A stretch of DNA of 64,000 bases from Candidatus Woesearchaeota archaeon. GTDB lineage: Archaea; Nanobdellota; Nanobdellia; Woesearchaeales; JACJVV01. The translations under genes were made by a program, and so were the position numbers. Below the pieces are notes generated by a model, which was not told the origin of the DNA, ran no database searches, and worked only from the letters and a program-made list of their open reading frames with translations. Numbering within the stretch: position 1 is the stretch's first letter; each line of letters starts with the position of its first letter. Where the stretch lies: assembly GCA_047602755.1 (NCBI GenBank), contig JBLKOM010000005.1:78936-142935 (forward strand), in the 5' to 3' direction. Shown here piece after piece: positions 381 through 63,973 of this stretch.

Positions 381-1166
381 TTATGTTAATATATAATCCC
401 CTTTTAAAAGTTTATTTGGATATACAATTATTCCTTTTTTGTCTTTGATTTCAAATTCAACAATCTTTCTTGCAGCATCATCACCACGCATTTTTAATAT
501 CTCTAATGCTCTTCCTCTTTTTCCACTGGAATATATTACATTGTAAATAACAACAATTCCGTCAGAGAGAAAACTAATTGCTTCACCTGCCTCTGAAAAT
601 GAATTTTTTAAGTGTGAAGGATGTGCTTCTTCTCTGATAAGAAATGAGCTAATTTTATTTGCTTCTAAATACCTAAATAGTTGTTCCATATAAATTCTAA
701 ATCTGTTTTGTTCTCCAGTAAATGCTGATGAAATACTACTTAATGAATCTACTACTAATAAATCAGGTGTGAAATCTTTAGGGATTAATACTGGATGCAA
801 ATCAATTAGTAATTCTTTTTTTGCTTCAGATAATAATGCTTCAACACTTCTTGCAATATCAAGTGCATTAAAACGTTTTATTCTAAGAACATCTTTGTGT
901 TCATAAATTTCAGGATCAAATCCAAAATCTTCCATGTGTTCTCTTAATCTTTCCTCTGGTTCTTCAAAACTCATATATAGTACTTTTTTTCCTGCTTTAC
1001 ATGCTTCGTGTAGTATGTGTAGGCATAATGCTGTTTTTCCTGAACCAGGACCACCTTCTACTATTACAGCATTCCCTTCAGGTATTCCATACTTTAAGAG
1101 ATCATCAAAACCAGGTACATTTGTTTTAAAACGATTAATTCTTTTTCTCTTTTTCATCCTTATCAC
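381..1166 (-). CDS. KaiC/RecA-superfamily P-loop ATPase (KaiC-like, single domain)
   Basis: Walker A GGPGSGKT and overall KaiC/RadA-like domain layout. Its start overlaps the upstream membrane-protein gene by 32 nt. Confidence 0.75.
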   Translation of the reverse strand: MIRMKKRKRINRFKTNVPGFDDLLKYGIPEGNAVIVEGGPGSGKTALCLHILHEACKAGKKVLYMSFEEPEERLREHMEDFGFDPEIYEHKDVLRIKRFNALDIARSVEALLSEAKKELLIDLHPVLIPKDFTPDLLVVDSLSSISSAFTGEQNRFRIYMEQLFRYLEANKISSFLIREEAHPSHLKNSFSEAGEAISFLSDGIVVIYNVIYSSGKRGRALEILKMRGDDAARKIVEFEIKDKKGIIVYPNKLLKGDYILT

Positions 1167-2786: not shown

Positions 2787-4333
2787 AGTATACTTTCTCC
2801 ACTCATTTCTTTTGGTTTTTCTACATTTAATAATTTTAAAACAGTTGGTGCAATATCTTGTAAACCTTTATTTTCTGGTAATATTATTTTATCTTTTTGC
2901 AAATGGGGATTATTACTTACAATTAAAAGATGAACTGGATTGATTGTATGTGATGTTTTGTATTTTCCTTCCATTTCTTCACAATTTCCATGATCTGCAA
3001 ATACTAATGCAATTCCATCTTTTTCAAGAATTTTTTCGCATGATTTTTTCACACAATCATCAACAGCTTCACAAGCTTTAACTACAGCTTCCCATACGCC
3101 AGTGTGACCAACCATATCTCCGTTAACAAAATTAACTATGATTACGTCGTATATTTCTTTATCTATTGCTTCACATAATTTATCGCATACTTCATAGACA
3201 CTCATTTCTGGTTTTAAGTCATATGTTGCAACTTTAGGACTATTGACTAGTATTCTATCTTCATTTTTCTTTGGTTCTTCAACTTGTCCATTAAAGAAAA
3301 AGGTAACATGTGCATATTTTTCTGTCTCAGAAATTCTTAATTGTTTTAATTCGTTATCTGCAATAACATCTCCTAATAAATTTGATAATGATTGTGGTCT
3401 AAAAGCAATACTAGCACGTGGATTCATGGGATTATAATAATCAGTCATTGCAACAAATTTTACATTTAGTGGTGTTCTATTCCATCCTTCAAATTCATCT
3501 TCAATTATTGCTTTTGTTAGTTGTCTTGTTCGATCTGTTCGGAAATTATAAAATATGATCCCATCATTTTCCTTTATTCCATTATACCACTTCGCTTTTT
3601 GTGGTATTATAAATTCATCTGTTTCATTGTTTTTATAGCTATTTTCAAGTGCTTTAATTGGGTCATCAAAAATAAGTTCTGTTTCTCCATTAACTATAGT
3701 ATCATAAGCTTTTTTTGTTCTTTCCCATCTTTTATCGCGGTCCATAGCATAATATCTACCTGAGATAGTGGCAATCTTACCTATTCCTAATTTGGATATT
3801 TTGTCTAATAATGTTTTTGTATGTATTACTGTGTCATTAATTTCACTATCACGTCCATCAGAAAAAATATGTATAATTACATTTTTATGTTCTTTTTGCT
3901 TGCATAAATCTAATATTGCCATTAAATGATCTAGATGTGCATGAACTCCTGCAATTTGTAATAGTCCCATTAAATGAAGTGTTTTATTATTTTTTTTACA
4001 ATCTTCAATTACATTAACTAATGCAGGATTTTTGAAAAATGAACCAGATTCAATTTCTTTATTTATACGAACCATAGCTTGATAGATAATACGTCCAGAG
4101 CCAATAGTCATATGTCCTACTTCAGAATTACCCATATATCCCTCTGGTAATCCAACTGCTTCACCTGACGCATTAATTAGTACTTTTGGATATTTATCCA
4201 TTATATAATCAGTATAAGGTGTGTTTGCTTTTATAGGACCATTTGCTTCAGCTTGTTCTCTGAAACCCCATCCATCCCGTATCATTACTACTATAGGCCT
4301 ATGAATATTTTTATTATTGTTGTTTTCTAGCAT
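2783..4333 (-). CDS. gpmI: 2,3-bisphosphoglycerate-independent phosphoglycerate mutase (bacterial-type iPGM)
   Basis: The N-terminus PIVVMIRDGWG and the SEVGHMTIGSGR metal/Ser motif, together with a length of about 516 aa, are typical of GpmI. Confidence 0.9.
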   Translation of the reverse strand: MLENNNNKNIHRPIVVMIRDGWGFREQAEANGPIKANTPYTDYIMDKYPKVLINASGEAVGLPEGYMGNSEVGHMTIGSGRIIYQAMVRINKEIESGSFFKNPALVNVIEDCKKNNKTLHLMGLLQIAGVHAHLDHLMAILDLCKQKEHKNVIIHIFSDGRDSEINDTVIHTKTLLDKISKLGIGKIATISGRYYAMDRDKRWERTKKAYDTIVNGETELIFDDPIKALENSYKNNETDEFIIPQKAKWYNGIKENDGIIFYNFRTDRTRQLTKAIIEDEFEGWNRTPLNVKFVAMTDYYNPMNPRASIAFRPQSLSNLLGDVIADNELKQLRISETEKYAHVTFFFNGQVEEPKKNEDRILVNSPKVATYDLKPEMSVYEVCDKLCEAIDKEIYDVIIVNFVNGDMVGHTGVWEAVVKACEAVDDCVKKSCEKILEKDGIALVFADHGNCEEMEGKYKTSHTINPVHLLIVSNNPHLQKDKIILPENKGLQDIAPTVLKLLNVEKPKEMSGESIL

Positions 4334-4412
4334 TTGATCACCTAATTTAATCTGTTGTTAAATATTTATATTTTTTATGTTATTCATCACGATTATTTTA
4401 ATTGTTTTGAGA

Positions 4413-4754
4413 TTAGAATAATAAACTTGTTCCTAGTGTGTTCACAAAAAGAATTGCAATTATTATATAAAAAATGATTATGAAAATAAATTGTAATAAC
4501 CACGCAAAAAATGATCTAAACCATCCAATTTCAAAAAACATAGCATAAACTGCAATCATTAGTATAAATGCAATAATTCCTGCCCATATTCTAAGAAGTG
4601 CATGAGCTAGTTCAAATACTATTGCACCTATAAATACTACTCCAGCAGTTTTTAATAATGTTGTTTTCCCACCTAAGAATCTAACTGAGAAATATAATGG
4701 TATTGAGGATACTATAAATATGATTATTCTTAATAATATTGCAGATAGACTCAT
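4413..4754 (-). CDS. Polytopic small membrane protein, hypothetical
   Basis: 113 aa, about 3 TM helices. Confidence 0.4.
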   Translation of the reverse strand: MSLSAILLRIIIFIVSSIPLYFSVRFLGGKTTLLKTAGVVFIGAIVFELAHALLRIWAGIIAFILMIAVYAMFFEIGWFRSFFAWLLQFIFIIIFYIIIAILFVNTLGTSLLF

Positions 4755-4919
4755 AAAACATTTTAAAATTAATACATATAAAAACTTTTTGTTTGATGCT
4801 ATTATTATTATTGTTTGAAATAGTCTTTTTTGATTACTTTTGCTTAAAATAGTTTTTTTAAAATTATTTTCTTATTTTATCCATTACATTTTTATAATAG
4901 TTATATTAAATATACAAAA

Positions 4920-5552
4920 ATGACTGAGAATATTGAATTTGCCAAAGATAATATTTTTACTTATAATATTAGTAAGAAAAGATTATTTGGGATATTTGTA
5001 ATATTTGGAGGAATATTTTTGTTGTTAATGGCATCATCATATTTTTTCTTTTTTCAGTATTTAGATAATTCATTTGTTAGGGCAGTTAATTTGTTTTTTG
5101 GTCATATATTTTCCCATATGACAAATATTACTTTGCTTGGTTCTTTTTATGTTGCTCTTTTTGGTGGTTTATTTTTTGTTTATGCACCAATAGAAGCATT
5201 ATTTGCCACATTTGTTTCTAGGCATAATCCTTTTTTAGTGACATTCTTTTTTGTTTGTGGCTTTTTGATATCTTATAGTATTAATTATCTTATAGGTTTT
5301 AAATTAGCTGAGTTGTCAAAATCATTAATTGGTGCACGAAAGTTTTACAAAGTTAAAGTTAAATTAAATAAATATGGTAGTTTAGCTATTTTTATGTTTA
5401 ATGCGCTTCCATTACTTCCATCACAGCCATTATCAACAATGTTAGGGATCTTTAAGTATAATAAAACTAGGTTTTATTTCTTTTTTTTATTAGGTCAGTT
5501 AAGTAAATTTACGGTTATAATAATTACTGTTACAGGTTTTGGTTTTAGGTGA
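4920..5552 (+). CDS. DedA/TVP38 (SNARE-associated) family membrane protein
   Basis: Multi-TM protein with a DedA-like core (F-N-A-L-P-L-L-P...). About 210 aa. Confidence 0.5.
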   Translation: MTENIEFAKDNIFTYNISKKRLFGIFVIFGGIFLLLMASSYFFFFQYLDNSFVRAVNLFFGHIFSHMTNITLLGSFYVALFGGLFFVYAPIEALFATFVSRHNPFLVTFFFVCGFLISYSINYLIGFKLAELSKSLIGARKFYKVKVKLNKYGSLAIFMFNALPLLPSQPLSTMLGIFKYNKTRFYFFFLLGQLSKFTVIIITVTGFGFR

Positions 5553-6004
5553 TAAAAATGAAAAATTTGCAAATATTATCAAAGAATTTTAGAAATGTTG
5601 ATTCAATGTTGAATTTACGAAATTATATTAGAAAAAAAGTATTTTCTAGTTCAGGCCAATACGTTGGTAAAGTTAAAGATGTGTATTTTCAGGGTAGTAC
5701 ACTAAATGGTGTATTAGTGAAAGGAAAGATTTCACTTTTTGTTGATAAGGAATATATTAGTTCTGATACTGGTGAATCTGTGATGTTAAGTATTGAGCCT
5801 GTTACCTCAATTATGGGTAAGCAAGTTTTTGATGCAGATGGAAGGAATTTAGGCAAAGTTATTGCACTTGAAAGGAAAACTAATGCAAACTCTTATGTAT
5901 CATTAATTATTAAAAGAGGTTTATTTCGAAAGAATCAAGTTATTCCAAAAGAGCATATTCAAGTTTGTAGTGATAATATTATTTTAAATAAAATTTATGA
6001 ATGA
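5549..6004 (+). CDS. PRC-barrel domain protein
   Basis: GKVKDVYFQG...G..V pattern typical of PRC barrels. Paralogue of the next gene. Confidence 0.5.
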   Translation: MIKMKNLQILSKNFRNVDSMLNLRNYIRKKVFSSSGQYVGKVKDVYFQGSTLNGVLVKGKISLFVDKEYISSDTGESVMLSIEPVTSIMGKQVFDADGRNLGKVIALERKTNANSYVSLIIKRGLFRKNQVIPKEHIQVCSDNIILNKIYE

Positions 6005-6062: not shown

Positions 6063-6500
6063 ATGGCAAAAATGGGTAATACAATAACGAGTGATGATAT
6101 TCTAGGAAAGACAGCTATTGCTCCGAATGGTGCAGTTTTAGGAGTAGTCATTAAAATGCATATCCAGAAAGACGCTAAGATTATAACTGGTTTAACAATT
6201 GATCAAGGTTTTATGAAGCCTGACCTTTTTGTCGGAATTGATTATATTAAGAATTTTGGGGTAGATACTGTTTTTTTGAGTAAGATGCCTTTTAATAAAT
6301 ATATTGGTATGCAAGTTTTAACTTCTGAAGGAAATAGTATTGGCCATGTAAAAGACTTTGTGATTGAAAGAAAGCGGATCTCAAAGTTTGTAGTATCTCA
6401 TAAATTTTCAAAGAAAATAGTATATATTCCTACAAATTCTATAAAAGAAATTGGCGGGAGTATTATTTTAAAAAGTGGGTTTAAAGAAGATTTGGTTTAG
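6063..6500 (+). CDS. PRC-barrel domain protein (paralogue)
   Basis: ILGKTAIAPNGAVLGVVIKMH... resembles the first PRC barrel. A second barrel-like half is present. Confidence 0.5.
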   Translation: MAKMGNTITSDDILGKTAIAPNGAVLGVVIKMHIQKDAKIITGLTIDQGFMKPDLFVGIDYIKNFGVDTVFLSKMPFNKYIGMQVLTSEGNSIGHVKDFVIERKRISKFVVSHKFSKKIVYIPTNSIKEIGGSIILKSGFKEDLV

Positions 6501-6508
6501 CTTATAAA

Positions 6509-7294
6509 TTATAATCTCATTTGTTTTAGAGGTGTAAATGACAATACTATTTTATGTTTGAATTTTTCATTAATATCATCTATAATTGTTTTTGCATACC
6601 CAGTTTCAGAAATGCTTAAGAATCTTGCATATTCTCTATGTGCACGATATTGTTCAAAGAATATTTTGTATTCATCTATTGTATTAAAAGAAAGATCTCC
6701 AAGTAATCTTATTTTGGTCATACCAATGGGTGATGCAATTCTAAAATCCATATTTTGATTACAGCATTTCATTAATTGATATAATGTCATATCTTTTACT
6801 GAAGGTATAGCTGAGTATGCAGAATATAATATATCACAATATTTTATGTCATCTTCTGTAGCACCTTGACTTTTTATTTGCTGTTTAAATTCATCAAAAC
6901 CAGTTTCAAAGTGGATATGATAATGTGTAACATGTTTTTTGATTAAAGCTATTTTTTTACTGTTTGGTGGGATTTTTGGTTTTTGATGATTAATAGCATT
7001 ATGAAATTCTAATCCTACATTATACCATATATTCTCTTCTTGATTGAAAAACCATGAGAATTCTCTAGATGATTCCATTGCATTGCACACTAATTCTAAT
7101 TCACCTTCTGATCTTCTAAGACGGGATTTATACATGGCTTCATCAATGGGAAGTTCATCTGATTCTAATAGTATCATCTTAGGAATGGGATTATTTACTA
7201 AGAAATCTCTTAAATGTTCACCTGAATTAGCTAAAACTTGATCTATTGTAATAAATGGCTTTGTTATTTTTTGTCTGATCTCATTTAGTTTCAT
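6509..7294 (-). CDS. Hypothetical cytoplasmic protein (261 aa)
   Basis: Long ORF with coherent coding composition. No motif recognised. Confidence 0.5.
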   Translation of the reverse strand: MKLNEIRQKITKPFITIDQVLANSGEHLRDFLVNNPIPKMILLESDELPIDEAMYKSRLRRSEGELELVCNAMESSREFSWFFNQEENIWYNVGLEFHNAINHQKPKIPPNSKKIALIKKHVTHYHIHFETGFDEFKQQIKSQGATEDDIKYCDILYSAYSAIPSVKDMTLYQLMKCCNQNMDFRIASPIGMTKIRLLGDLSFNTIDEYKIFFEQYRAHREYARFLSISETGYAKTIIDDINEKFKHKIVLSFTPLKQMRL

Positions 7295-7353: not shown

Positions 7354-7857
7354 TTAATCCTTTTTAAATTCAAATTTATAGGATAATACGAAGAACAGAT
7401 CAGATAGTCTGTTTATGTATTTATATACTGATTCTCTTAATTGTTCATTACGCAGTAATTTTACAGCTTTTCTTTCTAGTGATCTTGTTCTAACCCGTGC
7501 TTCATTAAGATATACAGAAACTGGATGACTGAATCGTATAAATTTATTTGGTATTACATAGCTTAGATTAGAAATAACTAATTCCATTTCTTCAATATCT
7601 TTTTTTGTTACAAGCATAGACTCATCAGTTATATATCCTGAAATTTCACCTGCCATAAATCTTAGTTTATCTTGAATTCTTTCAATTAATTTAACATCTG
7701 TACTGCAATGTAATCGAACAAGATCTAATGCTGATTGAAGTTCATCTATTGCACCAACAGTATCAATAATTTCTGAATCTTTTGGAACTTTTGCATTTTT
7801 TATAGTGGTGCAACCAAAATCACCTATTTTTGTAGTAACTTTTGCCATCTTCATCAC
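7354..7857 (-). CDS. PduO-type ATP:cob(I)alamin adenosyltransferase
   Basis: TKIGDFGCTTI...IDTVGAIDELQSALDL matches the PduO/MMAB N-terminal signature (T-x-x-GD-x-G-x-T ... E-x-x-G-x-x-DEL). Size about 167 aa. Lies next to the adenosylcobalamin-dependent RNR. Confidence 0.75.
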   Translation of the reverse strand: MMKMAKVTTKIGDFGCTTIKNAKVPKDSEIIDTVGAIDELQSALDLVRLHCSTDVKLIERIQDKLRFMAGEISGYITDESMLVTKKDIEEMELVISNLSYVIPNKFIRFSHPVSVYLNEARVRTRSLERKAVKLLRNEQLRESVYKYINRLSDLFFVLSYKFEFKKD

Positions 7858-7902: not shown

Positions 7903-8124
7903 TTATATATCACATTTACTAAATCCACATTCATCATTAACACAGCTATGGCATCCACCTTCAACTTTAAGTGTTTGTTTACCGCATGCAGGACACTTTG
8001 CTAGTGTTAAGTCAGCAACTATTGAATTATCTGCAACTTCATTTACTTTTACAGTACTTGCATTTGTAAAAACTTCTTCATCTTCTTCTATTTCTTCAAT
8101 TGTAAAATAACTCACTATCTTCAC
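7903..8124 (-). CDS. Stand-alone Cys-rich zinc-finger protein corresponding to the C-terminal redox zinc finger of class II RNRs
   Basis: CPACGK...CHSCVNDECGFSKC, i.e. CxxC...CxxC plus extra Cys. A GTG start overlaps the nrdJ TGA stop (GTGA). Confidence 0.6.
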   Translation of the reverse strand: MKIVSYFTIEEIEEDEEVFTNASTVKVNEVADNSIVADLTLAKCPACGKQTLKVEGGCHSCVNDECGFSKCDI

Positions 8125-10970
8125 CTCTGTGCTTTTAATAAATGATATACTGTTGATAATTTACCATCAGGCATATGGATAACTGTATCTCCTTTGCCTT
8201 CAATTATAGAACCATCTGGTCCTGTAAGTTTATAGGATTTATCCTTAAATGTCTGAAATTCAGTCTTTTTTGCTTCTGATGACAAAATTGGGAATCTGCT
8301 TCCTTCACGGTAGATTGTTATACCTTTAAGATTATGTTTCCATGCATCTAAATAAATCTTTGAAATTGTTTCAGGTTCAATATCTTCTGGAAGATTCACT
8401 GTTGATGATATACTTTGATCAATATAATCTTGACATATTCCTTGAATTCTAACTCTTTTATGTGCATCAATATTATGAGCTGTTCTGAAAAAGTAAGGTG
8501 GAAGATATTTTTTTAACTCTTCTTCATTTGCATTTTTTGCTTTTTCTGTTAATCCTTTCTTGTCTAAATATGCTTGGACTGTTGGATGGAATACCTTAAA
8601 GAATACATTTCCAAAGGATTCACTTCTTCTAGTATAATACAATGCAAATATTGGTTCAACGCCACCACTCACTCCAATATAATTTTTGTTACCTTCTCTA
8701 AAACCAACACATATATTTGAAATAGTTCCTGTTGGTGCAATAGCCATTGTAGCAACATTTCTAACTCCATGTTGTTTTATTAGCGTTTTAACATCATCAT
8801 TAAGTGCTTCTTTAAAGAAAGGGCATTCACTATATTTAGAATAATCAAAAATAGGAATTGCTCCTTTTTCTTCTGCTAATAATGCAGTTGCTTCATAAGA
8901 TTTATTTGCAATATATTTCATTACTTTTTCAATAACTATAATACCTTCATCACTATCATAACCCATACCTAATTGATTTAACATGTCTGCAATTCCAATT
9001 ACTCCCATACCTATTCTTCGTGTTAATTTTGCAGCTTCACGTTGTGTATCAAGAGGATTCATTTTTTCATTCCAACTTATAACATTGTCTAAAAATCTAA
9101 CTAAAGTATGGATTGTTTCTCCTAACCTATCCCAGTTTATTTCTGCTGAATCAGTATATCCATTATCAACCATTCTTGACAAATTAACACTTCCTAAATT
9201 ACAAGCCCCACCTTTTTCAAGTGGAACTTCGCCACAAGGGTTTGTTGAAGAAATAGGTCTTCCTAAATAATTAGATGGACTATATCCAGCCATTCTTGAC
9301 CATAAAATTAGTCCTGGTTCTGCAGTCTTATAGTTTCCTTCTACAAAAAGATTCCATATATTTCTTGCTTTTACTAATTTTTTAATTTCACCAGTAGGCT
9401 TTGAATTAAAATAAAGCATATAATCTCCAGAAAATTTAATTGCTAATTGTGATTCACCTGTTTTAACTATAAAATCACCAAAAACATCTCTATGGTTTTG
9501 TTCATTTAAGTCATCTTTGTTTAATGGATTTAAGTATCCATGATTCTCTTTTAGATATTTATTTAGCTTTTCGATGTTGTCAAATTTTTCAAGAAGTTTA
9601 TACTTCTCAACAGGTTTTGAAGGCATACCAAACGAATAATTAACATTAGGTATATCTTGCATTTTTGGTGAATTGTCTACAGATTTATCCATTTCATATA
9701 CTAAAACTGTGTCTTTTCCATATTTATTTTGTTCTTCAACAGCTGTCATAAATTCATCAGTGACTTTTAAGCTAATATTTGCAAATCTTACTTGAGTGTT
9801 TTCTCTTACTTGTCTTTCAATTTCATTAAGATCTGCTTCATCAAATTTATTGGACCATTTACATTGTTCAACAATTTGGCTTGTGACCCAATTAGAAACT
9901 TTTTTTACTTGAACAAATGATTCAACATCAGGATGCTTTACATCTAATGTTAACATTAACGCTCCTCGCCTTCCAGATTGGCCAATTAATCCTGTTGTTA
10001 AGCTATATAATTCCATGAATGAGACTGCTCCTGTGCTATGATCTGCAGCATTATGAACTACTGCATTTTTTGGTCGAAGAACAGATATATCAATACCAAT
10101 CCCACCACCATAAGAATATGTTCTTGCAGCTTCAAAAGCAGCATTATATATTGATTCTATATTATCATCATCTATTAATGTAACAAAACAGTTAGATAGG
10201 GTTTTAAGCCTGTATAAGTCTCCTGCACCAGCATTTACTCTACCACCAGCAACAAAATATCCTTCATAAAAACAATCATAAAACTTTTTTGCCCAAGCTA
10301 ATTGTTTCTTTTCTGTTGGTTCAACTGTAGCCATAAAAGCAGATAATCTTGCAAACATATCTTCCGGTCGTTGTTCAATCGGATGCCCTTCAAGATCTTT
10401 TAAATAGTATTTCTTTCTAAAAATATTATCCGCTAAATCATTTCCACTTATATAATCATTTTCAGAATGAATTGGAAGTTCACCGCTTACTTGCATTTTT
10501 CTTAATCTGAAAAGAAGTACTTTATAATCATTTAACATATCTTTTTCAATTATATTACTTAATTTACTTTTATGCTTAAACATTTCAGCTATTTTAACAG
10601 ATACTTCATCATCTAATTCAATGTTTTCAAGTTCTAATTTTTGAAGTCTTTCAATTTCTCTCAGTTGTTTGTGCTTTTCTCTATAAAGAATAAATGCTTT
10701 AGCTGTTTTTGCATGACCTTGTTCAATCAATATTTTTTCAACTTCATCTTGAATTTGTTCAACATCTAATGGTTTATCAACATTATATTTATTTTTGATT
10801 GAAGAAATTACATTTTCACTTAATTCTTCTGCAACTGAGATATCTGACCCACCTACAGATTGGGCTGCTTTGTAAATAGCATTTGTAATCTTTTGTTTTT
10901 CAAAAGAAACAATTTCACCAGTTCTTTTTTTAACATTTAATTCAGATAATTGTTGAGTTGATAACACCAT
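8121..10970 (-). CDS. nrdJ: Class II (adenosylcobalamin-dependent) ribonucleotide reductase with N-terminal ATP cone
   Basis: ATP-cone-like N-terminus VKKRTGEIVSFEKQKI. Finger-loop NPCGEV, ACNLGSVNL and AIAPTGTIS motifs. 949 aa. Confidence 0.95.
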   Translation of the reverse strand: MVLSTQQLSELNVKKRTGEIVSFEKQKITNAIYKAAQSVGGSDISVAEELSENVISSIKNKYNVDKPLDVEQIQDEVEKILIEQGHAKTAKAFILYREKHKQLREIERLQKLELENIELDDEVSVKIAEMFKHKSKLSNIIEKDMLNDYKVLLFRLRKMQVSGELPIHSENDYISGNDLADNIFRKKYYLKDLEGHPIEQRPEDMFARLSAFMATVEPTEKKQLAWAKKFYDCFYEGYFVAGGRVNAGAGDLYRLKTLSNCFVTLIDDDNIESIYNAAFEAARTYSYGGGIGIDISVLRPKNAVVHNAADHSTGAVSFMELYSLTTGLIGQSGRRGALMLTLDVKHPDVESFVQVKKVSNWVTSQIVEQCKWSNKFDEADLNEIERQVRENTQVRFANISLKVTDEFMTAVEEQNKYGKDTVLVYEMDKSVDNSPKMQDIPNVNYSFGMPSKPVEKYKLLEKFDNIEKLNKYLKENHGYLNPLNKDDLNEQNHRDVFGDFIVKTGESQLAIKFSGDYMLYFNSKPTGEIKKLVKARNIWNLFVEGNYKTAEPGLILWSRMAGYSPSNYLGRPISSTNPCGEVPLEKGGACNLGSVNLSRMVDNGYTDSAEINWDRLGETIHTLVRFLDNVISWNEKMNPLDTQREAAKLTRRIGMGVIGIADMLNQLGMGYDSDEGIIVIEKVMKYIANKSYEATALLAEEKGAIPIFDYSKYSECPFFKEALNDDVKTLIKQHGVRNVATMAIAPTGTISNICVGFREGNKNYIGVSGGVEPIFALYYTRRSESFGNVFFKVFHPTVQAYLDKKGLTEKAKNANEEELKKYLPPYFFRTAHNIDAHKRVRIQGICQDYIDQSISSTVNLPEDIEPETISKIYLDAWKHNLKGITIYREGSRFPILSSEAKKTEFQTFKDKSYKLTGPDGSIIEGKGDTVIHMPDGKLSTVYHLLKAQR

Positions 10971-34985: not shown

Positions 34986-36494
34986 ATGGAAAAAAAACTT
35001 AATAAAAATATTAAACTATTGAAAGATAATGCTTTTTTTATTAATCCAGTAAATATTGGATTTGAAGAAATAACGCAAAAAACTCAAGATATTACTGAGC
35101 AACTACATAGTAGTTCATATCTTAAGTTCTGCTTTAACTCAAACGTTACTAAAATAATTGGTAGAGAAACATTTGATTCAATTTTAGAATTATCATCTGG
35201 AAACAATGATCTTGGGTTTTTTTCATATTTTATTGATGAAATTAAGAGTGATGCAGAAAAAACAGATTATAATTTATCAAATTATTCTGGCGGTAGAGGA
35301 GACTATTTTACAATTAATAAGATGTTATTAATTGAGAATAAACTTTATGAGAGATTAACAAAAAAAAAGAATAAGTATTCTGTAAATAATATTACATTAA
35401 CTTTTTCTGGACAGGGTGCATATTCTGCAATCGCATCTTATCTGAAATCAAGTATTCATTCAAAAAAAAATATTTTATTTTTTGATTCAACTTATTGTTC
35501 TAATTACAAACCCTTTTCAAGAAAAGATCTCAATTTAAAATTTATTAAAACTGATAAAAATAAATTTTTACCAAAAGTTTCTGAATTATTAAAGGCCATA
35601 AATAAAAATTCGTCTATGTTATTTTTAGTTAAATTTCATAATCCTTCTGGTCAATTTTATTCAAGAAATGAATTAGAGCAAATAATTAAGAAATTAAAAG
35701 AATGTAATGTCTACTTAGTTTATTCTGAAGCATATGATTATCTTTCTTGGGACACAAAATATGATAATCATGTGATTAGTATTTCAGAAGAATTGAATTA
35801 TGATAAATTAATACGTGTAAAAACATTGTCTAAAGATAGAGGCCTTGCAGGACTTCGTGCAGGATATATGATTGGTCCAGAGGAGATAGTAAAACATACT
35901 ATAAAATTTAATGATGAAATAGCCTACAATCCACCTATGATTAATAATCCTATATTTATTATTCACCTTTATATTACTTATTTTAATGCTACTGGGAAAT
36001 ATATCTCTGATTTAAATAATGAAATATCTAATGCAAAAATAAGAAAGATTTCAAATAAGACAAAAAAAAATGAAATCAAACAGATAAATTATGTAAAAAA
36101 TAATTTTCAATTTATTCTGAAAGAACTCTTCAATAAAAAAATGGATAAAAAATTATATGGAGAATATATTGAAAATCAAAAATATGGGTTAGTTATACCC
36201 TCTGGTGGTATCAATTGCATTCTAAGAATAAAATATCTTGAATCATTTGATGAAATTGATATCTTTCGTAAGTTATATATTAATACAGGTTTAATAATGC
36301 ATAGTTCTAAGTTTATTTTAAAAAAAAAAGATGGTTATTGGATTAGAATTACATTATCGCATAAATTTCAAAAAATTAAGAAAATAATCTCGGTATTGAA
36401 AGAATTAGAATTAAATTTATCAAAATCAAATAATGATTATGAATTTCTGAATAAAAATACTATAAAAGTTAAAATAGGTGGAAAATATGAATGA
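34986..36494 (+). CDS. PLP-dependent aminotransferase class I/II fold enzyme with a ~140-aa N-terminal extension
   Basis: HNPSGQ (NPTG-like) motif and SKDRGLAGLRAGY, the PLP-lysine motif SK..G..G.R.GY. Confidence 0.65.
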   Translation: MEKKLNKNIKLLKDNAFFINPVNIGFEEITQKTQDITEQLHSSSYLKFCFNSNVTKIIGRETFDSILELSSGNNDLGFFSYFIDEIKSDAEKTDYNLSNYSGGRGDYFTINKMLLIENKLYERLTKKKNKYSVNNITLTFSGQGAYSAIASYLKSSIHSKKNILFFDSTYCSNYKPFSRKDLNLKFIKTDKNKFLPKVSELLKAINKNSSMLFLVKFHNPSGQFYSRNELEQIIKKLKECNVYLVYSEAYDYLSWDTKYDNHVISISEELNYDKLIRVKTLSKDRGLAGLRAGYMIGPEEIVKHTIKFNDEIAYNPPMINNPIFIIHLYITYFNATGKYISDLNNEISNAKIRKISNKTKKNEIKQINYVKNNFQFILKELFNKKMDKKLYGEYIENQKYGLVIPSGGINCILRIKYLESFDEIDIFRKLYINTGLIMHSSKFILKKKDGYWIRITLSHKFQKIKKIISVLKELELNLSKSNNDYEFLNKNTIKVKIGGKYE

Positions 36495-37167
36495 AAACTT
36501 AAAAACAACATGGGCTAGTACACAAAATGAAGAAGATGGTATGAATAATGATCATTATCCTCTTTGGATTGAAATGATAGAAAAGATGACTGAAAAAGAT
36601 TTAACTAACTTAACTGTCTTTGATTTTGGTTGTAATCAAGGACAATTTTTACGCGTTTTATATAGCAAAAAACCTTTTCTTAATGGTTTTGGAGTAGATA
36701 TCGCAAAAAATTCAATTGAAATTGCTAATCAAAATAAAAAAGAATTGCCAGTCGAATATCATGCAACTGATGACATTTCTTTTTTAGATAATTCTATTGA
36801 TATTGCCTTTAGTCATGAAGTTATTTATTTGCTTGAAGATTTAGATAGGCATGTCAAAGATATTTATTCAGTCTTAAAAGCAAAAGGTGTATATTATGTA
36901 GCACTAGGATGTCATACAGATAATCCAACCTGGCCTGCAATACGAAAATATGTTAGAGAAAAAATAAAATCTAATTTTTGTGATTATAGTTTAGATTATA
37001 TTTCAGATATTTTTAGAAAAAATGGATTTATTATATCTGCACAAAAATTTAAACTTAATGGTTTTATAAAAATATCAGATAATAGTAGTTGTTTTCATAG
37101 TGTTATGCAATTCTTAAATTATTATGATGATTATAAGATTTTGTTTAAATTTGAAAAAAAAGATTAA
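36478..37167 (+). CDS. Class I SAM-dependent methyltransferase
   Basis: Motif I VFDFGCNQGQF and an acidic residue after beta2. Confidence 0.65.
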   Translation: MENMNENLKTTWASTQNEEDGMNNDHYPLWIEMIEKMTEKDLTNLTVFDFGCNQGQFLRVLYSKKPFLNGFGVDIAKNSIEIANQNKKELPVEYHATDDISFLDNSIDIAFSHEVIYLLEDLDRHVKDIYSVLKAKGVYYVALGCHTDNPTWPAIRKYVREKIKSNFCDYSLDYISDIFRKNGFIISAQKFKLNGFIKISDNSSCFHSVMQFLNYYDDYKILFKFEKKD

Positions 37168-61200: not shown

Positions 61201-61854
61201 TTATTTAATTAAATAGGAAACATCATCTCTGAATTGACTGGTATTTAGATTTCTTAATAATGGTAATTCATGAGCTATGCAAGTAAACACATCTTGTGTT
61301 ACTTGATCAAGATTACGATTAGTTGTATCAATAATATACCATCCTTCATTTTTTGCTGTTGACATAAAATATTCACGTGTCTTTCTTCGAAAAAAAGTAT
61401 CAGTTAAGATTCTTTCATCATGAGGTTCATTAATTCCTTGATTACGTTCATTTATTCTTCTAAATTGTTCTTCTTCGCTTACTGTTAATAAAATTGTAGC
61501 AACAGGTTTTTTTAGATCATAATTTTCTGCATTTTTTATTGCTTGATTGACTGATTTGCCAAAGAGTAAGCTATTAGATATTATTGTGCTATGCATATAT
61601 CGACCAAGTAGATAAATGTCTTCAGGTGATAACTCACTTAATGTAAATTCATTGCCTTTCATGAAATAATTAAAACGTGAGTCAAAAGTATTATTCGGTT
61701 TTGGAAATTCAGCAATATATCTTTTAGAGGGTGTTTCTAGGTATTTAATTCCTAATTTTTCAATATTTTTTCCTACACTAGTCTTTCCTGAGCCATCTAT
61801 TCCCTCGAGTACAAAAAAATCAATACTTTCTTCGCTATTAATTTGTTGAATCAT
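61201..61854 (-). CDS. Thymidylate-kinase-like P-loop (d)NMP kinase
   Basis: P-loop FFVLEGIDGSGKTS is Tmk-type. It has a Tmk-like lid/DRY-like region but is otherwise divergent. Confidence 0.6.
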   Translation of the reverse strand: MIQQINSEESIDFFVLEGIDGSGKTSVGKNIEKLGIKYLETPSKRYIAEFPKPNNTFDSRFNYFMKGNEFTLSELSPEDIYLLGRYMHSTIISNSLLFGKSVNQAIKNAENYDLKKPVATILLTVSEEEQFRRINERNQGINEPHDERILTDTFFRRKTREYFMSTAKNEGWYIIDTTNRNLDQVTQDVFTCIAHELPLLRNLNTSQFRDDVSYLIK

Positions 61855-62425
61855 TTTTTACCCCATTATTAAAAAAAGAATTTTTCTCCATATATAATGA
61901 AGTTATACTTGTATCTATTCTATCATTTTCATCTATACCTAAATCATCCATCAATGAATGAATTAAATCTTTATTTTTCTGGAATTCACCACTGTCTATT
62001 ATTTCAACCTCAATACATAAAGGAAAATTTTCAAACTTTTCAATGTTAATACACATTTTTTCATTTTTATATGTCTCTCGTTTCTTTTTTACCGTACAAA
62101 ATACTTTGAATCCTAAAATATCCAGTATTTTTTGCATTGATTTCACATCTTTGAATTCAGTCTCGGATTCATCAAAAATTTGATGATCAGATTCATTTAC
62201 AATTGTCTTTATAGTTAATTCAGGGTATTTATTATCTTGAAGTCTTATCCTTAGACCATAAGAACCAACTTTATTCATTTTAGTATCTGCATAACTTTGT
62301 ATTGATTTTTTGCAATACCAAATATCTTCAATTGATGTTTCACTAATTTTTTTAATTCCTTTTAATTCTAATTGTTTTCTTAATAATTCTTCATTCTTAA
62401 TATAAGATCTTATTTCGATTTCCAT
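61838..62425 (-). CDS. CYTH-domain protein (CyaB/thiamine-triphosphatase-like triphosphate tunnel enzyme)
   Basis: N-terminal EIEIR...K and later E-x-E-x-E acidic patterns on alternating beta-strands. About 195 aa. Confidence 0.55.
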   Translation of the reverse strand: MEIEIRSYIKNEELLRKQLELKGIKKISETSIEDIWYCKKSIQSYADTKMNKVGSYGLRIRLQDNKYPELTIKTIVNESDHQIFDESETEFKDVKSMQKILDILGFKVFCTVKKKRETYKNEKMCINIEKFENFPLCIEVEIIDSGEFQKNKDLIHSLMDDLGIDENDRIDTSITSLYMEKNSFFNNGVKNDSTN

Positions 62426-62437
62426 TTTATTTCCTCA

Positions 62438-63973
62438 TTATTTCTTTAAGCCTATTGGTTGATGCATTTTACTTTGATCGCGATAAATTGTTATACCTTT
62501 TAGTCCTAGTTTCATTGCTTCAACATATATTGATTTAACATCTTCTGGTGATGCATATTGATTGATATTTACTGTTTTTGAGATAGCTTCATCTGTGAAT
62601 TTTTGGAATGCAGACACTATTGCAAGTTGCCTATCAGCTGAGATATCTAATTGAGATAAATAAATATTCCGAATTTCTTCAGGTATTAAAATTGGATCAC
62701 CTTGGTCTTTTAATTCTAATATTTTTTCAATTGCAGGTTTAACATAACCATATTCTTCTAATTGGTTGTATAACACTTCTCTCATGTTTGTTGATAATTT
62801 ATCTGAAAAATATGGTTCAATAGATGGACTTGCATCAATAACAAGTGAGCTTCTTCCAGTGGGAGGTAAAGCAGTAGTACTTACATGTCTTATTCCAGTC
62901 TTAGCTATTGTTTCTTCTAGCTCAATCCAATCTCTTACAGTCACCATTGCAGTAGAATATTTCCCAAATCTATCTGCAATATATCCTTTCCCAATTTTAG
63001 TTTCAGTATCATAAAAGGCAGGGAATGGTCCACGTTCTTTTGATAGTTCTATTGAAGCTTCTTTAGAGGTATAATTTACAAAACTCATTAGTTCTTCGGC
63101 AATTATTTCTGCATCAAATGAATCATAAGGAATTTTTAATTTTGCTAACATATCAGCAAATCCGCAAATCCCTAATCCTATTTTTCTTTTTTTATTCATT
63201 ATATCTACACTTGTGTCATTACCATAATTTGATATGCTTATATCTAATGCATCATCAAGAAATCTTACAACATCATGTATTGCTCGTCTTAATTCAGAAT
63301 ATGAAATTCTATTTTTATCTACAAATGCACCTACATTAAGATATGTAAATTGACATGTTTCACCTTCAGTCATTGCTATTTCACCGCAAGGAGCTAATGA
63401 AACATATTTTCCAAGGTGTGGTGCAGGATTATCTGTTTCAAACCGATCTAAAAAAGCAAGACCTGGATCTCCACATTCCCATGCAGAATTAACTATCTTT
63501 TCAAGTAATTCATTTGGATCAACAAAACTTCCATCTGATAATGTATAAACACTATTATTAAATAAAACTTTTACAAATTCATTTGGAACATTTACTGAAA
63601 TGTTAAAAATCCATTCTTTGTCTTTTGATTTTGTTTTACTTTCTATAAATTCAAATATCTTTGGATGATTTAAAGATATTATACCCATATTTCCTACAGG
63701 CCTATCTTGTTTGCCACTGTATTGCCCTTTAATTGCTACTTCATTTAGATAATTAAGCATCTCTACAGGATTATCACATTCATCAAAATTAAAACCAGTT
63801 CCCATCCCATTGATATGGTATTGATCTACAATTGCTTTAATTTTATTTAAATCATCACGAAGACTTATTGGAGGAACTGAACAAGCAGCTAATGGTTTAT
63901 CTTTATACCTACCTGCATTTGTCAGAAGGGTTGTGCTAGGGACAAATTGTTTACCATATAATCTTTTTGTCAT
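62438..63973 (-). CDS. nrdJ: Second class II ribonucleotide reductase paralogue lacking the ATP cone and C-terminal zinc finger
   Basis: FVPSTTLLTNAG, LAACSV, APCGEI and GETCQF(TYLNV) motifs, plus TTALPPTGRSS. 511 aa. Confidence 0.85.
   Translation of the reverse strand: MTKRLYGKQFVPSTTLLTNAGRYKDKPLAACSVPPISLRDDLNKIKAIVDQYHINGMGTGFNFDECDNPVEMLNYLNEVAIKGQYSGKQDRPVGNMGIISLNHPKIFEFIESKTKSKDKEWIFNISVNVPNEFVKVLFNNSVYTLSDGSFVDPNELLEKIVNSAWECGDPGLAFLDRFETDNPAPHLGKYVSLAPCGEIAMTEGETCQFTYLNVGAFVDKNRISYSELRRAIHDVVRFLDDALDISISNYGNDTSVDIMNKKRKIGLGICGFADMLAKLKIPYDSFDAEIIAEELMSFVNYTSKEASIELSKERGPFPAFYDTETKIGKGYIADRFGKYSTAMVTVRDWIELEETIAKTGIRHVSTTALPPTGRSSLVIDASPSIEPYFSDKLSTNMREVLYNQLEEYGYVKPAIEKILELKDQGDPILIPEEIRNIYLSQLDISADRQLAIVSAFQKFTDEAISKTVNINQYASPEDVKSIYVEAMKLGLKGITIYRDQSKMHQPIGLKK

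Follow-up and report, generated by a model that had tools for sequence, protein, structure and literature searches.

A separately encoded cysteine-rich domain is a described feature of one subclass of class II (adenosylcobalamin-dependent) ribonucleotide reductase (RNR), NrdJa+NrdJb (Crona 2015, PMC4520616; Loderer 2017, PMC5704485). In Pseudomonas aeruginosa and other Proteobacteria, this C-terminal module is a gene of its own, directly downstream of the catalytic gene and in one operon with it. The P. aeruginosa NrdJb exchanges thiols and disulfides with NrdJa in trans, forms a 1:1 complex with it and is essential in vivo (PMC4520616). Cysteines are missing from the tail of the catalytic subunit, which ends in an extra folded domain; Burnim et al. 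suggested that this domain holds NrdJb (PMC9669993). Crona et al. regarded the split in Proteobacteria as unique among non-viral organisms (PMC4520616). Here, we describe a locus of a Candidatus Woesearchaeota archaeon, within a stretch of 64,000 nucleotides (nt) that we call the window (contig JBLKOM010000005.1, positions 78,936 to 142,935). It holds a class II RNR gene, nrdJ, whose product ends without the redox finger, and directly downstream a small gene for a protein of probably 70 amino acids (aa) that carries it.

Several other arrangements are known. At its extreme C terminus, the S. nassauensis NrdJd has a six-cysteine array like that of the window finger, as part of a larger cysteine-rich domain (CRD) of 150 to 220 aa that also drives oligomerization. 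Zinc has been measured in this CRD, and all six finger cysteines are needed for turnover driven by tris(2-carboxyethyl)phosphine (TCEP), four being assigned to zinc and the other two to the redox pair; the tail of one subunit can deliver electrons to another subunit's active site, and thioredoxin and glutaredoxin are ineffective on this finger (PMC5704485). The fused short-tail NrdJs (Burnim et al. 2022, PMC9669993; here L004-L006, L008, L010, L024, L029-L031, and L037) share with the window enzyme a core of approximately 60% identity, the accessory domain, a disordered linker, and the six-cysteine finger, but are one polypeptide, whereas in the window the cut falls between accessory-domain helix and linker. 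The tail cysteine pair of class I NrdA/NrdE and of the monomeric NrdJ of L. leichmannii is alike in purpose, a flexible dithiol shuttling reducing equivalents to the active site, but lacks a zinc ribbon, has no sequence similarity, and is always covalent.

Results

The window (27% G+C) encodes a 949-aa NrdJ with, by Pfam, an ATP-cone, an RNR all-alpha domain, and a barrel, followed by a C-terminal accessory domain for which the Pfam scan gave no family. A winged-helix/excisionase-like reading of the TVYH...GRYVF segment of this domain was considered and dropped. The protein scores 496 bits against the NrdJ equivalog model TIGR02504 (NrdJ_Z; cutoff, 399.95) and has the motifs LSNCFV, NPCGE, and GGACNL. 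The NPCXE finger loop with the thiyl cysteine, as defined in PMC9669993, and the active-site cysteine pair are present in STNPCGEVPLEKGGACNL and LSNCFV. An earlier note on this DNA had held that the enzyme ends without the zinc finger of other class II RNRs and that the finger lies on a separate 73-codon open reading frame (ORF). Both observations stand. The NrdJ tail (...DGKLSTVYHLLKAQR) has no cysteine at all, and the ORF at 7903-8124 of the minus strand, which ends in ...CPACGKQTLKVEGGCHSCVNDECGFSKCDI (C-terminal stretch, LAKCPACGKQTLKVEGGCHSCVNDECGFSKCDI), matches positions 707 to 758 of the 759 positions of NF006417, the NCBIfam B12-RNR model (E = 1.4e-5). No other ORF of the window has its six-cysteine pattern. 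The split point lies just 3' of the conserved L[ST]TVYH helix of the accessory domain, and because the window NrdJ ends three residues past the helix motif HLLK, the cut sits at the edge of this domain and not in the middle of a disordered linker.

The finger is encoded by a separate gene, and the split is not a sequencing error. An independent Logan assembly of run SRR28154542 agrees with the window in every letter across 2871 nt, junction included. Stand-alone homologues of 70 to 82 aa, with 50 to 99% identity, were found in JGI, ENA, Logan, and NCBI data, and every one examined lies directly 3' of an nrdJ for 958 to 961 aa and 5' of a gene for a PduO-type adenosyltransferase. Among 39 related genome loci, together with metagenome loci, 11 are split, the window included, so that ten other assemblies, from several archaeal lineages, carry the split; in 12 related loci of Woesearchaeota and Zixibacteria, the NrdJ is fused, its tail running on past L[ST]TVYH through a linker of approximately 50 residues into the same finger. 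Fused and split versions thus coexist among the relatives. The junctions of the 11 split loci are diverse: measured from the end of the nrdJ stop codon, the finger starts 23, 11, or 4 nt before it or 0, 4, 5, 10, 33, 43, 127, or 131 nt after it, each of the three frame relations occurs, and in several loci a stop codon coincides with the finger start or lies one codon ahead of it. Within the window clade, the small ORF is under purifying selection, with a proportion of synonymous differences (pS) of 0.54 to 0.87, which is saturated, a proportion of nonsynonymous differences (pN) of 0.15 to 0.34, and dN/dS ratios of 0.13 to 0.42 where computable. The identical independent assembly, the stand-alone homologues, the diversity of the junctions, and purifying selection together establish that the gene is genuinely split, the first of the two options left open by the earlier note; a split clade with 100% bootstrap support, the occurrence of the split in other lineages, and a Shine-Dalgarno motif belonging to the finger gene itself (see below) agree with this.

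A single-base error near 8115-8160 that breaks one continuous nrdJ with a fused finger is easily constructed on paper, since the finger frame, which is -1 relative to nrdJ, is open for just 13 codons upstream of GTG 8124, and one A added to an AAAA run would restore a continuous ORF. The closest relative, L003 (83% identity), also shows what such errors look like: it is a nanopore metagenome-assembled genome (MAG) in which nrdJ is obviously frameshifted at 4190-4490 (approximately aa 195 to 300, with seven in-frame stops) and in which an A7 run directly precedes the nrdJ stop (6450-6466). However, the independent assembly has the same junction, and among the ten other split assemblies, several have stop-filled gaps of 33 to 131 nt or a finger frame closed by a stop immediately upstream; each split finger has its own start codon, most with GGTGA. 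An assembly or sequencing artefact is therefore barely conceivable as an explanation. The irregularities of L003 are probably homopolymer errors, which makes its exact junction unreliable, and L003 alone counts for little.

The other option named in the earlier note, a frameshift, did not survive the comparison of junctions, whose geometries are incompatible with it. In its programmed form, with the finger partly or wholly fused to NrdJ by a -1 frameshift or by stop read-through and the separate ORF only apparent, it does have local support. The window has UUA AAA G four codons before the nrdJ stop, where slipping by -1 on AAA would bring ribosomes into the finger frame and give the junction peptide LLKSTEVKIVSYF. 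At L034 (7985-7990), nrdJ and the finger ORF share one frame and are parted by a single TAA that is followed directly by ATG, with GAGGTGA upstream; read-through of this stop would recreate the fused protein. Against this, the frame relation varies among relatives (-1, +1, and 0), in L040, L042, L045, and L001, a stop at the finger start or one codon ahead of it closes the finger frame, or 33 to 131 nt separate the two ORFs, and we found no structured RNA, no terminator, and no conserved slippery site. The diversity of the junction sequences excludes a conserved programmed frameshift, and we regard this explanation as very unlikely.

Could the separate ORF be a decaying remnant, a finger cut off by a frameshift and no longer functional, with NrdJ being reduced in some other way? 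NrdJ without its CRD stays active with small dithiols in vitro (PMC5704485, PMC4520616), and many NrdJs have cysteine-free tails (PMC9669993). Decay, however, is not what the gene displays. The protein is conserved in spite of saturated synonymous sites, the six cysteines and the N-terminal motif are invariant, the start and the Shine-Dalgarno motif are conserved, and the gene has been retained across a clade whose NrdJs share just 60 to 83% identity. A non-functional remnant is, in our judgment, highly improbable.

The GTG that opens the 73-codon ORF overlaps the nrdJ TGA, as the earlier note observed. That this GTG is also the start codon, as was assumed there, is doubtful: it sits within a Shine-Dalgarno motif of a kind used locally, and translation therefore probably starts at GTG 8115, 5 nt downstream of GGTGA, to give a protein of 70 aa. 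The NCBI annotation of an identical protein (P0001, a hypothetical protein of a Candidatus Woesearchaeota MAG) uses the same start; in exact-sequence look-ups, the 70-aa reading is thus on record, and the 73-aa reading has no record. Shine-Dalgarno-type motifs precede 12 of the 65 ORFs of the window, versus 1.4% of random 13-nt windows. The three genes nrdJ, finger, and pduO each have GGTGA 5 to 7 nt before the start codon (for pduO, 5 nt ahead of ATG 7848), and 7 of the 11 split loci have it 5 to 6 nt ahead of the finger start. With the start taken as GTG 8115, nrdJ and the finger gene do not overlap but lie 5 nt apart. The overlap on which translational coupling had been premised is thereby replaced by a short gap, and this spacing is still close enough for coupling to be plausible. 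The order nrdJ - finger - pduO recurs in L040, L042, L045, and L101. A promoter and terminator scan found no terminator between the three genes; the scan is bacterial and is otherwise uninformative for an archaeon.

The same mechanical listing of the GTG of a GGTGA as a start codon, with the real start, an ATG, 9 nt downstream, was seen for four other window ORFs, 381..1166, 5549..6004, 7354..7857, and 36478..37167.

In an alignment of nine sequences of the window clade (clade A), residues M1, Y3, F4, I6, E7, E8, E14, L38, A39, and most of the finger are invariant; the approximately 30 residues between the N-terminal motif and the finger are acidic and vary in sequence and length. Across an alignment of 45 sequences, the cysteines C41, C44, C55, C58, C63, and C68 do not vary; two residues follow the last of them at the end of the protein. 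A profile of the nine-sequence alignment had 142 matches at E <= 1e-3 among 1.84 billion representative proteins: 63 of up to 100 aa, 29 of 101 to 160 aa, 23 of 161 to 330 aa (NrdJb-like), and 27 full-length NrdJs. Some of the short matches are gene fragments; many start with Met and seem complete. In the full-length NrdJs (738 to 1438 aa), the profile aligns to the last 40 to 70 residues, at the extreme C terminus. Homology to the C terminus of bona fide NrdJ is thus seen in the NF006417 match, in the profile search, and in viral contigs, where all 49 finger loci are NrdJ-fused C termini and no mini form was found. The strict motif [YF]x[IVF]EE is present in 14 of 72 short homologues. A search with a fused NrdJ tail as the query gave only fragments. 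The window protein has no Pfam domain and, in particular, no TSCPD; as a control, the long NrdJb-like protein P0024 matched TSCPD (PF12637) at 29.2 bits (cutoff, 22.8).

An AF2 (AlphaFold 2) model built on the 45-sequence alignment predicts a three-stranded fold for the last 30 residues, with a predicted local distance difference test (pLDDT) score of 86 to 88, and no secondary structure for the first 40. The best Foldseek matches of the finger model in the PDB are zinc ribbons (eL43, TFS4, and RPA12), all weak (E >= 0.12), and a PDB sequence search with the finger gave only chance-level matches to the Nop10 zinc ribbon. A model of the fused homologue P0159 (from L005), made with 13 sequences, is poor (mean pLDDT, 54.5), and from it we use, with caution, just the secondary structure and the pLDDT of the C-terminal 120 residues. 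These are predicted to form the accessory domain at residues 911 to 960 (four strands, the VYHAAR helix, and a QLKK/RYVF hairpin; pLDDT, 67 to 77), a disordered stretch at 961 to 990 (pLDDT, 31 to 41), and the finger (pLDDT, 65 to 76). The SYFTIEE motif can be aligned with the fused tails in three possible registers, and we do not claim a specific split hairpin in which SYFTIEE is one strand.

The history of the split was examined on a neighbor-joining tree of the catalytic protein, which contains no proteobacterial NrdJa. The window, L003, L001, L040, L042, and L045 group in a clade made up of split loci alone (bootstrap support, 100%), with the Iainarchaeum locus L002 as a weakly supported sister. 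Two further split pairs, L014/L034 and L026/L036 (here groups B and C), whose fingers have 42 to 45 aa, nest in a clade that holds fused NrdJs (93% support). Because these two split groups nest within the fused clade, the tree indicates that the finger has separated from a fused short-tail NrdJ at least twice, and probably three times. The window clade stands apart from nine loci of the Neomarinimicrobiota type (L015-L019, L023, L025, L027, and L039), in which an overlapping ORF for approximately 220 aa follows the nrdJ stop (~6480-7200). That ORF encodes a TSCPD/IscU-like domain plus the finger; by gene order and domain content, this is the classical NrdJa+NrdJb arrangement outside Proteobacteria.

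Free fingers were also observed in other settings. In 9 of the 12 fused-NrdJ loci, an extra six-cysteine finger ORF of approximately 38 aa lies 0 to 88 nt 3' of nrdJ (Table 1; for example, MKEFTKCPNCGGPVEKE..CFSCKDEKCGWGICL), a conserved paralogue of the fused finger. Others lie away from nrdJ (L049, 1774-2339; L050, 477-1042; L047, 3874-4050). At L049 and L050, a 37-aa finger overlaps a PduO adenosyltransferase gene (ATGA), with a glycosyltransferase gene and small ORFs upstream and no nrdJ; at L047, a 58-aa finger is surrounded by small hypothetical ORFs, and the setting may be that of a mobile element or a virus. A further type of finger-less NrdJ tail ends in two cysteines 13 to 14 residues apart, as in KVCKVEFINGQLVKSCGD. 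The nrdJ genes of L011, L029, L030, L031, L034, and L036 are 150 to 400 codons longer than the rest, probably owing to inteins in the barrel, and that of L011 seems to be in more than one piece.

The window encodes a second NrdJ of 511 aa, which, as had been noted earlier, also has no finger. Its tail (..YRDQSKMHQPIGLKK) has no cysteine, and an exact-sequence look-up gave no record. It has both active-site cysteines and the thiyl cysteine, in a loop that reads APCGE, not NPCGE, and it does not have the C-terminal accessory domain beside which the split occurs. The figures for its family are taken from its 120 best homologues (516 to 752 aa), 115 of which have APC[GA]E; the tail, with a ..QPK ending, is cysteine-free in 87 of the 107 that could be scored. 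Some of these proteins are fused to CYTH or NUDIX domains, several come from Patescibacteria, and the family of short APC[GA]E NrdJ-like proteins is present in both the Candidate Phyla Radiation (CPR) and DPANN. In the window, the gene directly downstream of the second nrdJ is a CYTH gene.

The presence of this second finger-less enzyme had been taken to make a stand-alone finger acting on both NrdJs in trans more plausible. We found no evidence to support that step: the second NrdJ belongs to a large, mostly tail-cysteine-free family and has no accessory domain. At the one homologous locus examined, there is no finger ORF of >=35 aa within approximately 2 kb of the gene, and the family appears to manage without an adjacent finger. 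The finger of clade A, moreover, is always linked to the first nrdJ and to pduO, and in the window, it lies 54 kb from the second NrdJ. A free finger serving as a small redox carrier for tail-less RNRs would nevertheless accord with several observations, among them the intact active site and cysteine-free tail of the second enzyme, the free fingers that occur apart from nrdJ or in addition to a fused finger, the fingers of groups B and C that have no docking motif, and the documented transfer of electrons between subunits (PMC5704485). We consider it unlikely, on balance, that the 70-aa protein is a shared diffusible shuttle. Stated in its broadest form, the idea would be that DPANN, CPR, and some mobile elements have free NrdJ-type fingers as a general class of small dithiol carriers that diffuse freely and are not obligate subunits of one enzyme, the 70-aa protein re-reducing both NrdJs here, and to this we likewise give only a small chance. 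If it were true, the extra fingers beside fused nrdJ genes and the pduO-linked fingers would belong to the same system, and the gap left by the failure of thioredoxin and glutaredoxin to reduce the S. nassauensis finger would be filled.

Table 1. Positions of the features discussed, in the window (first ten rows) and in related loci
Feature	Position	Strand	Remarks
nrdJ, class II (adenosylcobalamin) RNR catalytic subunit	8121..10970	minus	949 aa
NrdJ C-terminal accessory domain	8124..8288	minus	approximately residues 895-949, ...FQTFKDKSYKLTGPDGSIIEGKGDTVIHMPDGKLSTVYHLLKAQR; from tail alignments
GAGGTGA, Shine-Dalgarno-type motif of the finger gene	8121..8127	minus	holds the nrdJ stop TGA (8123-8121) and GTG 8124-8122
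Finger gene (mini-NrdJb)	7903..8115	minus	70 aa from GTG 8115-8113; stop 7903-7905; the 73-codon reading from GTG 8124 is a less likely alternative
N-terminal motif SYFTIEE, residues 2-8	8092..8112	minus	Y3, F4, I6, E7, E8 invariant in clade A; proposed docking element
Acidic linker, residues 9-40	7996..8091	minus	variable length, weakly conserved, no predicted secondary structure
Putative zinc-ribbon finger, residues 41-70	7906..7995	minus	CX2C-X10-CX2C-X4-C-X4-C
PduO-type cob(I)alamin adenosyltransferase	7354..7848	minus	PF01923, TIGR00636; third gene of the conserved nrdJ - finger - pduO cluster
Second NrdJ	62438-63973	minus	511 aa; no finger
CYTH gene	61838-62425	minus	next gene downstream of the second NrdJ
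Extra free finger ORFs at fused loci	L004 7035-7151; L005 7046-7162; L006 7026-7142; L010 7041-7157; L022 2377-2493; L024 6975-7091; L030 7501-7617; L031 4498-4620; L037 7034-7150		
Two-cysteine NrdJ tails	L012 ~4750-4948; L020 ~6415-6556; L032 ~4838-5060; P0158		

Discussion

Our comparisons suggest that the 70-aa protein is translated on its own and serves the class II RNR as a subunit, in the manner of an NrdJb reduced to its finger, and we think this quite probable. The finger gene would be co-transcribed with nrdJ and the PduO adenosyltransferase gene and translated from GTG 8115 by means of its own GGTGA; because this motif overlaps the nrdJ stop, we propose that NrdJ and the finger protein are made together. 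By homology, the C-terminal 30 residues would fold as a zinc ribbon in which four cysteines hold zinc and two form the redox-active pair. This pair would re-reduce the active-site disulfide of NrdJ after each turnover, and an external reductant would then re-reduce the pair. The covalently attached finger has this function in fused NrdJ, as NrdJb has in Pseudomonas. The acidic linker may serve as a flexible tether, the finger protein being held non-covalently. As SYFTIEE is more conserved than the linker, we read it as a docking element, which most likely anchors the small protein to the NrdJ accessory domain, adjoining the cut. The adjacent PduO adenosyltransferase would supply adenosylcobalamin.

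Several points weigh against parts of this scheme. The case for docking through the N-terminal motif is built on its conservation, and its register against the fused tails is ambiguous. The 42- to 45-aa fingers of groups B and C do not have the motif, so docking through SYFTIEE would not be universal. The spacing of the last finger cysteines (X4, X4) differs from that of S. nassauensis (X2, X5), where the full array is CX2C-X9-CX2C-X2-C-X5-C and not CX2C-X10-CX2C-X4-C-X4-C. In the S. nassauensis system, a truncated enzyme combined with the separately expressed CRD showed no activity with TCEP (PMC5704485), indicating that action in trans is not automatic. Finally, a minor fused product arising from a -1 slip at UUA AAA G in the window formally still has to be allowed for.

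The small protein might instead serve the PduO adenosyltransferase, in cofactor loading or cobalamin reduction, and have no part in the shuttling of thiols to RNR. The adjacency of finger and pduO is conserved, and at L049/L050, the two genes overlap with no nrdJ upstream. However, the finger is homologous to the covalent tail of NrdJ, whose role in re-reduction has been shown by mutagenesis (PMC5704485), and a zinc/dithiol module is not an obvious candidate for the one-electron reduction of Co(II). The need of NrdJ for adenosylcobalamin offers a simple explanation for a pduO gene beside nrdJ. A partnership with PduO in place of RNR therefore seems to us very improbable indeed.

The case is not new in kind, as the principle of a separate cysteine-rich module was already known. 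The earlier note, which treated the locus as a separate finger, was silent on NrdJb, for which such a domain has been described (PMC4520616, PMC5704485). The likeness to NrdJa+NrdJb is close: the finger gene directly follows the gene for the catalytic subunit, this subunit ends in a further folded domain and has a tail free of cysteines, and thiol-disulfide exchange with the active site is presumed in both. The differences lie in size, host, and origin. NrdJb has 229 aa and combines an IscU-like/TSCPD domain with the finger, whereas the window subunit (70 aa; 42 to 90 aa in relatives) is finger and linker only; and the window split is found in a DPANN archaeal host and derives from a short-tail fused NrdJ, more than once. 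Finger-only subunits are not mentioned in the literature on class II RNR that we searched.

The general picture of RNR re-reduction is unchanged by these findings. A practical consequence may lie in biochemistry. Earlier work with the full CRD and with NrdJb met insolubility or aggregation (PMC5704485, PMC4520616), and a protein that is naturally finger-only and has an acidic linker could prove workable, both for finding the physiological reductant and for solving the structure of the active site with the finger in place. There is also a consequence for annotation. Burnim et al. reported that 26% of finger-less tails are cysteine-free and that NrdJa/b explains only approximately 40% of those (PMC9669993); NrdJs that seem to have no reductant tail may have their finger in an unannotated neighboring ORF of 40 to 90 aa. 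For the enzyme family, our results show that evolution has detached the finger from the enzyme repeatedly and that a subunit of approximately 30 folded residues, without an IscU-like domain, can be the working, or at least the selectively maintained, redox finger of a class II RNR.

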